Shown here piece after piece: positions 8,859 through 40,915 of a stretch of 64,000 nt of DNA; the stretch's first letter is position 1; every line of letters starts with the position of its first letter. The notes below the pieces were generated by a model. That model was not told the DNA's origin. It made no database searches and saw only the letters and a list, made by a program, of their open reading frames with translations. The stretch spans positions 5,023 to 69,022 of the forward strand of contig CAYOXM010000003.1 in the NCBI GenBank assembly GCA_964407925.1, read 5' to 3'. This stretch comes from an uncultured Gammaproteobacteria bacterium. Lineage in GTDB: Bacteria; Patescibacteriota; Patescibacteriia; SG8-24. Made by a program: the position numbers and the translations under genes.

Positions 8859-10130
8859 TTACCCTTCGAGATATTTCCTGCCGCGGAGGCGATCGGGGAG
8901 GTATTCCTGGTCGACCGGGCCCTCCGCGTCGGGATTATAGACGTACCCTTTTCCGTAACCGAGCTGTTTCATCAGCTTCGTCGGGGCATTTCGGATGTGG
9001 TGCGGCACGGGATCGTTCGGGGACTCGGCGATGTCGCGCCTCACTTCGCCGTATCCGGCGTACAACGCGTTCGATTTCGGCGCGTGGGCGAGGTAGACGA
9101 CGGCCTGCGCGAGGATGACGTCGCATTCGGGCATCCCGAGCAGGTGCGTCGCCTGGAATGCGGCCACGGCCTGCACCAGCGCCTGCGGATCGGCGAGACC
9201 GACGTCCTCGGACGCGAACCGCACGAGCCGCCGCGCGACGTAGAGCGGCTGCTCGCCCGCCTCGAGCATCCGCCCGAGCCAGTAGAGCGCCGCGTCGGCG
9301 TCGGAGCCGCGCATGCTCTTGTGCAGCGCGGAGATCGCGTTGAAATGCTCCTCACCGGACTTGTCGTAGAGGAGCGACGAACGCTTGAGCATTTTCGCGA
9401 CATCTTCGCGCCGCAAGTGTACCACGGGACCGGCGGCCCCGTCGACGCGGCCGGAGACCGCCTTCACGGCGAGTTCGAGCGCGTTAAGCGCCGCCCGCGC
9501 GTCCCCGTCGGCCGCCTCCGCCACGGCGCCGAGCGCGTCCCCGTCGGCCTCGACGCCGAACGAACCGAGCCCGCGCGTAACGTCGCCCATCGCCCTTGCC
9601 AGCACGACCGCGATCTCGGCCGCCTCGAGCTTCTTGAGCACGTAGACGCGGCTTCGGGAAAGAAGCGCCGAATTCACCTCGAACGACGGGTTCTCGGTCG
9701 TCGCGCCGATGAGCGTCACCGTCCCGTCCTCGACGTACGGCAGGAACGCGTCCTGCTGGGCCTTGTTCCAGCGGTGGATCTCGTCGACGAAGACGATCGT
9801 CCGCGTGGCATGGAGCTTGAGCCTGTCCTCGGCCTCTTTAACCGTCTCGCGCAGGTCCGCGACGCCGCTCGACACCGCGCTCAGCGCGACGAACCTCGAC
9901 CGCGTCATGCGCGCGACGATGCGCGCGAGCGTCGTTTTCCCGGTCCCCGGCGGACCCCAGAGGATCATCGACGGCACCTCGTCGCGCTCAAGCAGGCCGC
10001 GTAACATGCCGCCCGGACCGACGACGTCCGCCTGTCCCACGAACTCGTCGAGCGATTCCGGCCGCATCCGGTCGGCGAGCGGCGCTTCCTTCTTCAGCTG
10101 CTTTTCGGCCTTGTAGGCGAAGAGGTCCAT
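8859..10130 (-). CDS. rarA: replication-associated recombination protein A (RarA/MgsA AAA+ ATPase)
   Basis: RMRPESLDEFVGQ, GPPGTGKTTLA and FVDEIHRWNK motifs. Confidence 0.9.
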   Translation of the reverse strand: MDLFAYKAEKQLKKEAPLADRMRPESLDEFVGQADVVGPGGMLRGLLERDEVPSMILWGPPGTGKTTLARIVARMTRSRFVALSAVSSGVADLRETVKEAEDRLKLHATRTIVFVDEIHRWNKAQQDAFLPYVEDGTVTLIGATTENPSFEVNSALLSRSRVYVLKKLEAAEIAVVLARAMGDVTRGLGSFGVEADGDALGAVAEAADGDARAALNALELAVKAVSGRVDGAAGPVVHLRREDVAKMLKRSSLLYDKSGEEHFNAISALHKSMRGSDADAALYWLGRMLEAGEQPLYVARRLVRFASEDVGLADPQALVQAVAAFQATHLLGMPECDVILAQAVVYLAHAPKSNALYAGYGEVRRDIAESPNDPVPHHIRNAPTKLMKQLGYGKGYVYNPDAEGPVDQEYLPDRLRGRKYLEG

Positions 10131-24914: not shown

Positions 24915-26204
24915 CTACTTCCTTTCCGCAAGCGTGACGTCGACCGTTTTCTCCTTGCCCTTGTGCAGCACCTTGAGCGTCACTTTGTCACCGGGACCGT
25001 ATCCGCGAATCGCCACCGCGAGCGGATACTCCTCGGTGAGCTTCTTGCCGCCCGCCTCGAGGATGATGTCGTTCTCCTCGATGCCCGCGACGTCCGCCGG
25101 CGACCCCGGCGACACGGCGAGGTCGGTCTGCGTCTCGCCGCGCACGACGAGCGCGCCGTAATCGACGGAGAGTTGGTTCTGCTTCTTGATGTCCTTGCTG
25201 ACCATCACGTAGCGCACGCCGAGCCAGGCGCGGGTGATTTTTCCGCCGGTCTTCACCGTCTCGATGACGCGCTTCACGTCGTTCGCCGGCAGCGCGAAAC
25301 CGATGTTCTGCGACCCCTGGACGATGGCGACGTTCACGCCGATGACTTCGCCCTTCAGGTTGAGGAGCGGCCCGCCGGAGTTTCCCGGATTGATGGCGGT
25401 ATCGGTCTGGATGACGTCGTAGAGGTCCTCTGGTTTCGCCATGCCGTTCGAGGCCTGGATGGATCGCTTGAGGCCCGACACGACGCCGGTCGAGACCGTG
25501 TTGCCGAACTGGCCGAGTGCGTACCCGATGGCGATGACGCGCTGGCCCACCTTGATCGCGTCGGAGTCGCCAAAATCGAGGTGCGGCAGGCCGGTCGCCT
25601 CAATTTTCAGCACGGCGATGTCATTCGACGGATCGCGGCCGATGACTTTCGCGTCGTGCTTCGCCCCGTCCTGCAGGACGACGGTATATTCGGCGGTCTC
25701 ATCGAGCACGACATGCCGGTTCGTGACGATGTAGCCGTCATCCGTGACGATGAAACCGGTCCCCGCACCGATATCCTTCTTCTCCGTGCCCTTCTGCCGC
25801 ACCTGCGGCATCTGGAACGCGGGGTTGTCGCCGAAGAACTGCTGGAAGAAATCGTCGTTACCGAACGGATTGACGTTGTACTGCTCGTACACCGGCATGT
25901 CCTTCGCGACGACTATCGACACGACCGCCGGAGAAGATTTCGCGACCGTGGCGACCGTCATCTCCTCCTCCGATTCCCGCGCCGCGGCAGGCGGCTGCGC
26001 GGCGCGCGGCTCCTCCGGAGCGCCGACGCCGGCACGGTAACGTTCACCGAGCTGCGGAGAAAGCGAGGTCAACAACGAAGCGGAAAGCTCGCGGTTCGCG
26101 CCGACAATGCCGCCGAGGAAACCGAAAAGCGACGACACGCCGGCAGCGATGACGAGCGCGATGACGACGTAGGCTGTCGCCATCGGATTCTTATGCTCTG
26201 TCAT
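24915..26204 (-). CDS. htrA: HtrA/DegP-family serine protease (trypsin-like domain plus PDZ)
   Basis: TGFIVTDDGYIVTNRHV, DIAVLKI and GNSGGPL catalytic-triad motifs, plus a C-terminal PDZ domain. The start was trimmed to MTEHKNP. Confidence 0.85.
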   Translation of the reverse strand: MTEHKNPMATAYVVIALVIAAGVSSLFGFLGGIVGANRELSASLLTSLSPQLGERYRAGVGAPEEPRAAQPPAAARESEEEMTVATVAKSSPAVVSIVVAKDMPVYEQYNVNPFGNDDFFQQFFGDNPAFQMPQVRQKGTEKKDIGAGTGFIVTDDGYIVTNRHVVLDETAEYTVVLQDGAKHDAKVIGRDPSNDIAVLKIEATGLPHLDFGDSDAIKVGQRVIAIGYALGQFGNTVSTGVVSGLKRSIQASNGMAKPEDLYDVIQTDTAINPGNSGGPLLNLKGEVIGVNVAIVQGSQNIGFALPANDVKRVIETVKTGGKITRAWLGVRYVMVSKDIKKQNQLSVDYGALVVRGETQTDLAVSPGSPADVAGIEENDIILEAGGKKLTEEYPLAVAIRGYGPGDKVTLKVLHKGKEKTVDVTLAERK

Positions 26205-26277
26205 GGCAAATGGCGTTAAGAATTCATTGGCGAAAGTATACTCCCGATAGGACAAGTTGGCAAAGTGCCGAACATTA

Positions 26278-26299
26278 TTTTTGCTTATATAAGCAAAAA
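26278..26299. promoter_or_regulatory. 22-bp perfect palindrome TTTTTGCTTATATAAGCAAAAA in an AT-rich htrA upstream region
   Basis: Read directly from the sequence. It lies about 75-95 nt upstream of the htrA ATG, and a TTATCCACA box sits at 26332. Confidence 0.4.
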
Positions 26300-26372
26300 T
26301 AATGTCGTTCTTATCACTACATAACGTAGTTTTATCCACAACGAAAAACCCACCGGACACGGTGGGTCGAAT

Positions 26373-26582
26373 CTACTCCCGGCGCGGCGCGGGAAGAAGG
26401 CGCAAGCCGAGGATCGCGAGGAGCGGCAGGAGCATGCCGACGCCGATGACGAACGCGTTTTCTCCGGCGACGTCGCTCGGATCGCGGAGCAGTCGCAGGC
26501 CGCCGGACGCGGTAAGCGCCGCACCGAAGGCGAGCAGGACCGCGAGCAGGATGTCCGGCCACGAGGGCCGTTTACGGCGCAT
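26373..26582 (-). CDS. small membrane protein (2 TM)
   Basis: Hydrophobic. It overlaps the upstream gene by 11 nt. Confidence 0.35.
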   Translation of the reverse strand: MRRKRPSWPDILLAVLLAFGAALTASGGLRLLRDPSDVAGENAFVIGVGMLLPLLAILGLRLLPAPRRE

Positions 26583-27051
26583 GATCGTCCTCCATCGTCG
26601 CGACGAACGTTTCTTTTCTCGGTCGGCGCGGCCGGACGTACGGCAGGAGCGCCGTCGCGCCGCGATTCGAAACGACCCCGACGATCGTCACGACGAGCGG
26701 CATCATGCCGCTCTCCCCCGCATTCTCGAATGCGAGGAACAGGATGAGTCCCCACATCACGAGGAACACTCCGGCGAACTGCAGGAACGAAAGTACCGTG
26801 ACGGCCAGCGCGCGAAGCACCGAACGCGTCAGATTTTCCGTCCGGCCACCGCCGACCATCCTAATGACCGCGCCGATCGTCGACGCGAGCGCGAGAAGCG
26901 CGACACCGACGAGACCGACGACGACGGGATCCCAATCCCCTTCCCAACTGAGCGCGAAACCGTTCTTGACCGCGGAAGCGAACGCATACCCGAGGCAGGC
27001 GAAGCCGACGGCACCGACCAAAAAAATGACGGGACGCACTTTGCCGCTCAT
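26572..27051 (-). CDS. membrane protein (4 TM), hypothetical
   Basis: GGAG lies 7 nt upstream of the ATG. Four hydrophobic helices. Confidence 0.45.
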   Translation of the reverse strand: MSGKVRPVIFLVGAVGFACLGYAFASAVKNGFALSWEGDWDPVVVGLVGVALLALASTIGAVIRMVGGGRTENLTRSVLRALAVTVLSFLQFAGVFLVMWGLILFLAFENAGESGMMPLVVTIVGVVSNRGATALLPYVRPRRPRKETFVATMEDDHAP

Positions 27052-27109
27052 CGTTTTCTCCGTCGAAAAAGAGCTCCCCCTACCTTACGAGAAGCCCCTG
27101 AAAACGCAA

Positions 27110-27145
27110 CTTTATCCACAATGGGGACAGTCCCCGTTGTGGATA
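27110..27145. promoter_or_regulatory. near-perfect palindrome TTATCCACAATGGGGAC-A-GTCCCCGTTGTGGATAT (two inverted DnaA-box-like 9-mers)
   Basis: Read directly from the sequence. It lies about 55 nt upstream of the ATG at 27051. Confidence 0.45.
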
Positions 27146-27712
27146 TCAGTAGTCCAAACCGAACCGCGCCGGAACGCCGTGGTAAAAGTAATGTTTCACG
27201 AGCGACACGTCGCTCACGAGGTCGGCAAGTTCGCGGAAGGACTCGGGCGCGTCGCGTCCGGTCAGCACGAGTTCGGTCTCCGCGGGTTTCGATCGGATGA
27301 CGGCAAGCACGTCTTCCTCGGCCAGCATCCCGAGCGTCACCGTCGTGTTGATTTCGTCGAGGATGACGAGGCCGTGCTCCCCATTCGCGAAAATGCCGCG
27401 GACGATTCCGAGGCCGCGCTCGGCTTCGGCCTTATCCTCCGGCGTCACGCCGAAACGGAACCGGCCGGTCACGGGGTCGATGCGGTCGAGGCCCGTGGCA
27501 TGAAGCGCGATTTCGGGAAACCGCTCGGCGATAATCTTACGCTCGGCATAATGGTCGCCGCCCTTGTCGAAGTGGACGATGGCGACCTTCATCCCTTGCG
27601 AGACGGCGCGCAGCGCCATCCCGAGGCCCGCGGTCGTCTTGCCCTTCCCATTGCCAGTGTAGACCTGAATGAGACCCGTGGATTTCGGCGTCGCTGATGA
27701 CCTGCGTTCCAT
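27146..27712 (-). CDS. cobO: cob(I)yrinic acid a,c-diamide adenosyltransferase (CobA/CobO/BtuR family)
   Basis: IQVYTGNGKGKTTAGLGMALRAVSQGMKVAIVHFDKGG. The start was trimmed to MERR. It lies directly downstream of nrdJ. Confidence 0.8.
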   Translation of the reverse strand: MERRSSATPKSTGLIQVYTGNGKGKTTAGLGMALRAVSQGMKVAIVHFDKGGDHYAERKIIAERFPEIALHATGLDRIDPVTGRFRFGVTPEDKAEAERGLGIVRGIFANGEHGLVILDEINTTVTLGMLAEEDVLAVIRSKPAETELVLTGRDAPESFRELADLVSDVSLVKHYFYHGVPARFGLDY

Positions 27713-31253: not shown

Positions 31254-31430
31254 GGGTGAAAAATTTTTCGAAAAATTGCTGGTGTAGAGTAGCGCGGGTT
31301 CTCACCATGAGCAACCCTCCTTATCCACAACTAATTGTGTCTGTTAGTCCGAGTATACCACAAGATGTTGTGTTGCTTGTGGATAACCCTCCGTACAAAA
31401 AACGACACAAATTTACGCCTTCATCGAGCG
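31254..31430 (-). promoter_or_regulatory. nrdJ upstream region: DnaA-box-like 9-mers, extended -10, and an AT palindrome in the 5'UTR
   Basis: TTATCCACA at 31321 and TTGTGGATAA at 31377 are inverted. A degenerate TATACCACA sits at 31354. On the nrdJ sense strand this gives TG-G-TATACT (extended -10). AATTTTTCGAAAAATT lies at 31263-31278. Confidence 0.45.
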
Positions 31431-40673: not shown

Positions 40674-40699
40674 AAAAAGCCCGCCTTCGCGTGGCGGGT
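40674..40699 (-). terminator. attenuator terminator CCCGCC-ACGCGAA-GGCGGGC followed by T5 (minus-strand sense) between the leader peptide and lysC
   Basis: Read directly from the sequence. Confidence 0.55.
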
Positions 40700-40734
40700 G
40701 TCTGTCTCGCGTGCGTGTTCTCGCAGCAGCGACC

Positions 40735-40800
40735 TACCCCGCCGAACAAGTCGTCGTGGTCGTGGTCGTCGTCGTCGTCGTGACAAACGCGGTGGCCATA
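40735..40800 (-). CDS. threonine-operon leader peptide MATAFVTTTTTTTTTTTCSAG (11 consecutive Thr codons)
   Basis: Minus-strand reading ATG GCC ACC GCG TTT GTC (ACG/ACC/ACT)x11 TGT TCG GCG GGG TAG. It is followed by a terminator hairpin upstream of lysC-hom-asd-thrB-thrC. Confidence 0.5.
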
Positions 40801-40848
40801 ATGATGGGAGATAGCGTAACACGCTTCCCCGTCGCGTCAAACGACAGA

Positions 40849-40885
40849 CTTATCCACACCGGGGACAGTCCCCCGGTGTGGATAA
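40849..40885. promoter_or_regulatory. near-perfect palindrome TTATCCACACCGGGGAC-A-GTCCCCCGGTGTGGATAA (second copy of the 27110 motif)
   Basis: Read directly from the sequence. It lies about 50 nt upstream of the thr leader ATG. Confidence 0.45.
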
Positions 40886-40915
40886 AAAATGACCCGCCGG
40901 ACAGGCGGGTCGTCG

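Follow-up and report, generated by a model that had tools for sequence, protein, structure and literature searches.

Conserved DnaA-box-like 9-mers beside four promoters, and their variable palindromic packaging, in an uncultivated bacterial lineage

The 64 kb stretch of DNA analysed here (contig CAYOXM010000003.1, positions 5,023 to 69,022; hereafter the window) has a guanine plus cytosine (GC) content of 66%, comes from an uncultivated lineage, and carries in several of its intergenic regions short sites built on the 9-mer TTATCCACA, the strongest form of the DnaA-box consensus TTATNCACA. Single or paired copies stand upstream of htrA, of an operon that begins with a small membrane-protein gene, of nrdJ and of the threonine (thr) biosynthetic operon. 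At two of these four places an inverted pair encloses a GC-rich core to form a composite palindrome, designated B and D. Comparison with related genomes indicates that the 9-mers are the conserved unit beside these promoters, and that the palindrome is a less constant arrangement of them. The sites, in window coordinates, are the following.

26332..26340, plus strand: box A, a single box upstream of htrA, reading TGTGGATAA on the coding strand
27112..27146, no strand: composite palindrome B, 35 bp, sequence TTATCCACAATGGGGACAGTCCCCGTTGTGGATAT; box TTATCCACA at 27112-27120, linker AT, core GGGGACAGTCCCC at 27123-27135, linker GT, box TGTGGATAT at 27138-27146
31321..31329, plus strand: nrdJ promoter-proximal box, TGTGGATAA in coding-strand orientation, spanning about +16 to +24
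31378..31386, minus strand: nrdJ promoter-distal box, TTATCCACA in coding-strand orientation, occupying the -35 position (about -41 to -33)
40850..40885, no strand: composite palindrome D, 36 bp, sequence TTATCCACACCGGGGACAGTCCCCCGGTGTGGATAA; box at 40850-40858, core at 40861-40873, box at 40877-40885

Exact copies of TTATCCACA number six in the window (26332+, 27112+, 31321+, 31378-, 40850+ and 40877-), against 0.05 expected from dinucleotide shuffles, none of 100 of which reached that count. All six match the 9-bp DnaA consensus, as does ATATCCACA, the form taken by the right arm of B, one mismatch from the box. Because 40-nt windows with less than 50% GC make up only 2.4% of the total, the excess holds on an AT-rich intergenic background as well, for which we estimate about 0.06 boxes. 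The 13-mer core GGGGACAGTCCCC occurs exactly twice, each time between a box pair. A first-pass annotation of this DNA had described both palindromes as inverted DnaA-box-like 9-mers around a shared core, with a single box by htrA and inverted boxes by nrdJ; the sequences and coordinates of B (35 bp) and D (36 bp) were confirmed, and the remaining boxes were recovered as exact matches at 26332, 31321 and 31378.

Within a composite the two boxes are oriented TTATCCACA...TGTGGATAA, their TTAT ends facing outward, around a G4-N5-C4 mini-palindrome. The arms of D are perfect over 15 nt, with a 6-nt centre, and its predicted hairpin has an energy of -17.6 to -18.3 kcal/mol (z about -7), that of B as DNA being -14.9 kcal/mol (z -6.8). 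As an intrinsic terminator B goes unscored on both strands, and the minus strand of D is scored terminator-like only by way of a loose T-count. No convincing target-site duplication was found at the composites, nor any flanking direct repeat beyond a TA that belongs to the box itself. An Rfam scan of the whole window returned two tRNAs only, leaving the sites without any match, and permissive scanning (E<=10) over 26100-27300 gave no family at the sites there either.

Relatives of this region were found via the aspartate kinase and the membrane protein as nine syntenic contigs (L001, L002, L003, L048-L051, L053 and L054) from uncultivated organisms sharing 54-80% protein identity, which their submitters label Eisenbacteria, Binatia or Parcubacteria. 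In the roughly 150 kb made up of these contigs and the window, all 18 perfect boxes, where about 0.26 would be expected from base composition, fall in the same four orthologous intergenic regions, those of htrA, the membrane-protein operon, nrdJ and the thr operon. The suggestion that the 9-mers at nrdJ, thr and htrA are promoter-proximal and non-random is thereby upheld, and this distribution argues for selection on the 9-mer as a cis-element, for which a DnaA box is the most plausible identity. At nrdJ, GTTATCCACAA is invariant in all four sequences (the window, L001, L048 and the distant L002), and L002 keeps it although its upstream DNA can no longer be aligned. At htrA, TTGTGGATAAAACTAC-N5-GTAGTG is kept in five of five relatives, and at the membrane-protein operon the proximal box is kept in three of five. 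At thr a box stands beside the -35 in five of five lineages, with variable orientation and spacing: TGTGGATAA lies 8 nt upstream of the -35 in the window and L001, TTATCCCCA lies 5 nt upstream in L002 and L003, and in L054 a perfect single TTATCCACA lies 6 nt upstream in the opposite orientation, the promoter element TTTGAC being invariant in four relatives.

Conservation ends at the 9-10-mer, and thus a monomeric reader, for example DnaA domain IV, would fit. All 12 box pairs share the orientation TTATCCACA...TGTGGATAA and are inverted, spaced by 17, 18, 40 or 48 bp; the only tandem neighbour, a weak one read by eye, lies 2 bp away in L003. To judge from this pattern, TTATCCACA boxes are kept by selection as a cis-element beside four promoters.

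The genes flanking all sites are on the minus strand and, when viewed along the coding strand, each site falls in the gap that separates the end of one unit from the promoter that follows. The genes and signals concerned are listed below.

26204, minus strand: start of htrA
26235..26263, minus strand: htrA promoter TTGCCA-17-TATACT, with 10/12 matches in a promoter scan; conserved in relatives
26316..26330, no strand: inverted repeat ACTAC-N5-GTAGT adjoining box A, its arms invariant and its centre variable in the alignment of relatives
26347..26368, minus strand: intrinsic terminator of a 69-aa gene that lies near htrA on the same strand; the T-run ends 2-3 nt before box A
27051, minus strand: start of the 159-aa membrane-protein gene
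27082..27109, minus strand: inferred promoter of the membrane-protein operon; -35 TTGCGT at 27104-27109, 16-nt spacer, -10 TAAGGT at 27082-27087
27146-27148, minus strand: stop codon of cobO, overlapping palindrome B
31244, minus strand: start of nrdJ
31326..31373, minus strand: two NrdR-box-like palindromes, CACAACATCTTGTG at 31360-31373 and CACAATTAGTTGTG at 31326-31339
between nrdJ and the thr operon in listed order, minus strand: RNase-H-like gene
following the leader MATAFVTTTTTTTTTTCSAG, minus strand: thr operon of aspartate kinase, homoserine dehydrogenase, asd, thrB and thrC
40734-40799, minus strand: thr leader peptide MATAFVTTTTTTTTTTCSAG, with its ATG at 40799
40813..40840, minus strand: inferred thr promoter; -35 TTGACG at 40835-40840, 16-nt spacer, -10 TACGCT at 40813-40818
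40891..40911, minus strand: intrinsic terminator of the DUF5715 gene, its T-run leading straight into box D
beyond palindrome D and last in listed order, minus strand: DUF5715 gene

Box A is situated about 108 nt upstream of the inferred htrA transcription start and about 75 nt upstream of the -35, the proximal box of B ends 2 nt upstream of the membrane-protein operon -35, and that of D ends 8 nt upstream of the thr -35; the latter two promoters were read by eye, the promoter scan having scored neither. Palindrome B does follow cobO directly, as had been annotated, and in fact overlaps its stop codon, but the membrane-protein gene starts 61 nt from its edge and not about 55; the distance of about 50 nt given for D and the thr leader holds at 50 nt.

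At nrdJ the two NrdR-like palindromes flank an extended -10, TGGTATACT (31352-31360), at 33 bp centre to centre, and both are invariant in four relatives. We take these inner palindromes to fit the published NrdR-box consensus. The arrangement described for NrdR boxes (PMC12176259), a 16-bp palindrome acaCwAtATaTwGtgt with paired copies about 31-32 bp apart, is found in the inner nrdJ sites and neither in the 35-bp composite nor in the single boxes. The proximal nrdJ box overlaps the 3' end of NrdR-like box 2, and in L002 the second nrdJ box reads TGTGTATAA, which is the end of the NrdR-type box ACACTATATGTTGTGT. An nrdR gene was not found in the window or related loci. Also upstream of nrdJ in L002 (18120-18250), a canonical terminator is nested in a long inverted repeat with one purine-rich and one pyrimidine-rich arm, a layout resembling that of the thr locus in the same genome.

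The palindrome itself is evidently not the conserved unit. At locus B it is kept in the most distant relative, L048, with a core, GGGGTCAGACCCC, that carries a symmetric double substitution; L049 has a degenerate proximal box only; and in the closest relative, L050, 34 nt are precisely absent and the promoter is intact, the -35, -10 and leader of the membrane-protein operon being invariant in all five relatives. At thr, L001 retains the outer boxes around an unrelated 40-nt interior, and long inverted repeats of unrelated sequence abut the box in L002, L003 and L054 (arms of 47, 46 and 32 nt), so that in this spacer a predicted palindromic potential persists and the sequence turns over. The proposal that a strict palindrome with a conserved GC core forms the unit of a dimeric regulator is not supported by these comparisons, given its absence from L050, the altered core of L048, the unrelated inverted repeats at thr in L001, L002, L003 and L054, and the lone reversed box of L054. 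The best-supported description of the palindrome is of a partly dispensable module, holding two outward-facing boxes around a GC clamp at a terminator/promoter boundary.

In every relative the spacer that runs from the DUF5715 terminator to the thr promoter box holds a long inverted repeat of unrelated sequence with arms of 24 to 47 nt (L054 7324-7460; L002 9693-9811; L003 9720-9817; L001 9755-9812). Among six composites, three base pairs change on both sides, a covariation score reached by 4 of 500 shuffles; in so small a sample this is suggestive of symmetry at the variable positions, and the linker dinucleotides are often unpaired. Outside box pairs the core was found 0 times in about 135 kb of unselected lineage DNA, and box pairs enclose all G4-xy-N-y'x'-C4 palindromes of the lineage to which the window belongs. 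In three cases a stop codon is built into the outer box as TGATATCCACA (window 27146-27148; L045 606-608; L048 about 9546-9548), two of the genes so ended, cobO and an unknown 265-aa gene, being unrelated; the box reads ATATCCACA only in this stop-codon-overlap context.

A metagenome scan for TTATCCACA-N2-3-GGGGACNGTCCCC, a biased search, returned six loci. Four of them, from Hainich groundwater, have the complete palindrome, the 24-nt left half being the same in each, and two (L046 and L047) carry proteins of one metagenome-assembled genome (MAG) listed at NCBI under "Patescibacteria group". The composite of L046 lies between divergent transcription units, a guanylate-kinase-like gene and thyX-tmk, with dcd nearby; that of L047 follows the iscU terminator, 19 nt before a phosphoribosyltransferase (PRTase)-prs pair; and that of L045 follows the terminator of Ham1/rdgB. 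The right-hand gene of L045 is convergent, has a genuine coding signature (GC1 0.64, GC2 0.39, GC3 0.80), and its stop overlaps the box as TGATATCCACA, exactly as does that of cobO in the window. Overall, four composites are placed between tandem genes, one between divergent and one between convergent genes; canonical terminators precede D, L045 and L047. The copy numbers observed are two in the 64 kb window and three loci in one MAG, the latter from the biased search. At another of the six loci, on a metagenome contig of 53% GC, a direct-repeat array of the form box-core-box-core-box, [TTAYCCACA-AG-GGGGGACTGTCCCCC] twice plus TTATCCACA, occupies L043 1606-1668, about 15 nt upstream of a minus-strand ATG.

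The core has a wider distribution. A scan of a genome collection for TCCACA-N2-3-GGGGACNGTCCCC gave 38 matches (L004-L041) in unrelated phyla, a total near chance level, with centre base A in 25, T in 6, C in 3 and G in 4; the neighbours of these cross-phylum sites are ordinary housekeeping genes, and no transposase or regulator recurs beside the core among 31 loci. Within one mismatch of the TTW form of the box, about 4 of 22 cross-phylum matches carry a full DnaA box against 5.5 expected, which is no enrichment, and DnaA therefore does not explain the cross-phylum core motif. A coding origin of TCCACA-NN-GGGGACAGTCCCC, whose reverse strand would encode the zinc-knuckle pattern GDCPxCG, was also rejected: only 2 of 14 matches with a two-nt linker fit, and it is incompatible with the three-nt-linker matches and with intergenic arrays. 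GGGGACWGTCCCC forms local arrays or repeat families in Bacillus kwashiorkori (36% GC), in Verrucomicrobia, Steroidobacter and Gaiellales MAGs and in Pseudoduganella umbonata (examples at L023 4216-4267 and 7721-7831, L032 6303-6487 and L026 1774-1895), that of the Steroidobacter MAG lying between response-regulator and kinase genes. In Paenibacillus sp. J31TS4 (L034 6734-6920, minus strand), the DNA upstream of a gene for a cold-shock protein contains DnaA boxes clustered in tandem (TTATTCACA...TTATTCACAaagTTATGCACAtTATCCACA); directly behind them come GGGGACAGTCCCC and a degenerate inverted box. Rfam returned no match at eight core-bearing loci, a full-text literature search for the 13-mer gave unrelated eukaryotic primers only, and no copies were found by BLAST of the 35-mer against phage records or by a scan of viral contigs for the generalised composite; the same BLAST of a plasmid collection gave two matches, a Collinsella terminator-like hairpin, ACCACAATGGGGACAGGCCCCTTTGTGGTGGTTTT, and a weak one in Marinobacter.

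We know of no reader of TTATCCACA other than DnaA, and the sites are real and probably regulatory. That the 9-mers are high-affinity DnaA boxes maintained by selection at the promoters of four units (nrdJ, thr, htrA and the small membrane-protein operon), with the 35/36-bp palindrome as a lineage-specific packaging of them, is a proposition to which we give even weight for and against. The sequences, their enrichment, position and orientation, and their conservation or turnover among relatives are observed; that DnaA binds them, in which direction it regulates and what the core does we infer. At the E. coli oriC, published models have DnaA oligomers growing out of R1 and R4 on their TTAT side. 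By analogy, DnaA-ATP oligomers at the sites described here would grow outward, starting at the TTAT end, leaving the core behind and covering the adjacent -35, and DnaA at the promoter-proximal box could contact or occlude RNA polymerase there. The distal box and the stable GC core might together act as a roadblock or insulator, stopping transcription that reads through from upstream; DnaA is reported, in work that PMC11317965 cites, to block elongating polymerase, so that an insulator right after a terminator would suit. The outcome would be a coupling of expression, most clearly of the genes for deoxynucleoside triphosphate (dNTP) supply, to the state of the replication initiator.

Precedent comes from DnaA-box operators. 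DnaA regulates nrdAB and gua, and chromatin immunoprecipitation sequencing in E. coli delineates a compact DnaA regulon centred on the making of nucleotides and on replication and repair (PMC8203912, PMC11317965), with which the nucleotide-metabolism neighbours in the groundwater MAG (gmk-like, thyX-tmk, PRTase-prs and rdgB) seem consistent. The known operators (nrdAB, dnaA and guaBA in E. coli, with others proposed for ribonucleotide reductase (RNR) genes in B. subtilis and Caulobacter) share with the present sites the consensus TTATCCACA at or over an RNR promoter and the theme of nucleotide supply (PMC8203912, PMC11317965). The present boxes differ in being inverted and 17-48 bp apart rather than in tandem at 2-3 bp, in the GC-rich mini-palindrome between the boxes at two sites, in targets that include thr and htrA, and in belonging to an uncultivated lineage where they are known from sequence alone.

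Several points weigh against assigning the sites to DnaA. Only 13 of 32 consensus boxes in E. coli are bound in vivo, with a preference for boxes in tandem at 2-3 bp (PMC11317965), an arrangement at odds with pairs that are inverted and, in the composites, 17-18 bp apart. Neither thr nor htrA is a classical DnaA target, DnaA leaves the G4-N5-C4 core unexplained, and a search for the dnaA signature in the window and the fetched related loci found no dnaA gene or oriC. Overlap with an NrdR-type box may explain part of the conservation of the proximal nrdJ box, and the precise 34-nt absence in L050 leaves an intact promoter. As the right-hand gene of L045 is convergent and truly coding, that copy of the composite has no promoter to serve, and the spread of placements (4 tandem, 1 divergent, 1 convergent) matches the expectation for any intergenic element.

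These last points bring forward an alternative that we regard as unlikely though worth taking seriously, in which the composite is a small non-autonomous intergenic repeat, akin to repetitive extragenic palindromic (REP) sequences or miniature inverted-repeat transposable elements (MITEs), that spreads and is lost as a unit, its arms incidental or hitch-hiking and without a dedicated regulatory role. The 34-nt indel at an orthologous site, present in the window and L048 and missing from L050, is the presence/absence polymorphism typical of such repeats; B shares an identical 24-nt left half, TTATCCACAATGGGGACAGTCCCC, with three loci of a MAG that is distantly related; copies directly adjoin the 3' ends of genes, with the TGATATCCACA stop overlap in two unrelated genes; and unrelated genomes have repeat families around the same 13-mer. 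REP- or terminator-like placement, which the first-pass annotation had named as telling against its own reading, is thus found in part, in the one copy that another genome carries between convergent genes. Like REP sequences and bacterial interspersed mosaic elements, the composites are imperfect palindromes of about 35 bp, strictly intergenic, often just past gene ends and variable among relatives; unlike them, they are seen in few copies (two in 64 kb), lack a GTAG/CTAC motif, have no RAYT gene in view, and possess arms that are a known protein-binding consensus conserved alone as well. Nor does a mobile repeat readily accommodate the restriction of the core to box pairs over about 135 kb, the want of an evident target-site duplication or of a transposase or RAYT-like gene recurring nearby, the conservation of core-less boxes at htrA, nrdJ and thr, the survival of the outer boxes in L001 after replacement of their interior, or the absence of copies from viral contigs and phage records. 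Binding by another factor of the lineage, for example a dimer that regulates nucleotide metabolism or a relative of NrdR recognising CCACAA/TTGTGG half-sites, with the DnaA-box match a coincidence, seems to us quite unlikely. Palindromes are typical of dimeric regulators, a symmetric core substitution suits a symmetric reader, the groundwater MAG neighbours are dNTP-related, and the CACAA/TTGTG palindromes of NrdR boxes, two of which lie in the nrdJ promoter and overlap one DnaA-type box, recall the CCACAA/TTGTGG of the arms. Yet the full 9-mer is invariant beyond CCACA and equals the strongest DnaA box, single boxes stand alone in either orientation (htrA; thr in L054), paired boxes are spaced anywhere from 17 to 48 bp, and the half-site spacing of the 35-bp composite is incompatible with 16-bp NrdR boxes paired about 31-32 bp apart; no candidate regulator gene linked to the sites was found among the window open reading frames or related loci.

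We think it very unlikely that the palindrome is mainly structural, whether as an RNA hairpin ending or stabilising the upstream transcript or as a DNA cruciform insulating the promoter or sensing supercoiling. Strong hairpins (z -6 to -8), the terminator-like score of the D minus strand, the three pairs changed on both sides (in only six sequences), the palindrome of unrelated sequence at thr in every relative and the look-alike Collinsella terminator ACCACAATGGGGACAGGCCCCTTTGTGGTGGTTTT would all accord with it. B, however, has no following U-run; D, L045 and L047 already stand downstream of canonical terminators; linker positions are frequently unpaired; and neither the invariant DnaA-type 9-mer nor the single unpaired boxes at htrA and in L054 would be explained. 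Two further readings retain DnaA and give it a task in replication. One, highly improbable in our estimation, makes the composite an occasionally mobile DnaA-box hairpin module common to lineages related to the candidate phyla radiation (CPR), a chromosomal landing pad for DnaA with secondary effects on transcription, where a cruciform or single-stranded DNA (lagging-strand template, R-loops where promoters are active) would present a duplex box on a G4/C4-clamped stem and might function in helicase loading or restart, as at the ABC-primosome A-site, or in head-to-head nucleotide exchange, as at DnaA-reactivating sequences (DARS). The other, to which we attach the least credence, makes the inverted boxes a replication-control site proper, either DARS-like, exchanging nucleotide on DnaA, or a helicase-loading hairpin like the A-site. 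Opposed boxes are the essential core of DARS1 and DARS2 in E. coli, which are likewise intergenic and promoter-associated (PMC6868365), and a hairpin whose stem forms a duplex consensus DnaA box is the A-site substrate (PMC6127211), into which our palindromes are predicted to fold. DARS boxes I and II are nevertheless 5 bp apart and require a third, direct box, whereas the composites have a palindrome-filled spacer of 17-18 bp and no third box; A-sites are known from single-stranded plasmid and phage origins, not from chromosomal promoters such as these adjoin; and the module is dispensable in a close relative.

DnaA as a transcription factor is known from few model bacteria. If regulation by DnaA from the promoter-proximal boxes is borne out, the link between replication initiation and DNA precursors would extend to uncultivated CPR-related lineages (nrdJ, thr and htrA here; thyX-tmk, gmk and prs in the second MAG), and would do so through a different site architecture, outward-facing inverted boxes around a GC clamp, set exactly where a terminator borders on the following promoter. 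What is new here is the palindromic arrangement of the promoter-proximal DnaA-box modules; binding by DnaA and a role of the core we infer. The sites offer a testable candidate regulon for organisms not yet grown, and a defined 35-bp probe.

Some features of the flanking DNA may be added. Just upstream of the htrA -35, at 26272-26305, the window contains a perfect 34-bp AT-rich palindrome, ACATTATTTTTGCTTATATAAGCAAAAATAATGT, at whose position relatives keep a palindrome of different sequence. Downstream of the thr leader (window 40680-40799, minus strand) lies an attenuator-like terminator at 40680-40698; the Rfam Thr_leader model gave no match to the window leader, which is conserved in L001, L002, L003 and L054. 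The promoter and 5' leader of the membrane-protein gene (window 27052-27103, CGTAAGGTAGGGGGAGCCCTTTTTT...) are almost invariant in five relatives that share 54-72% protein identity, which suggests a putative regulatory leader.

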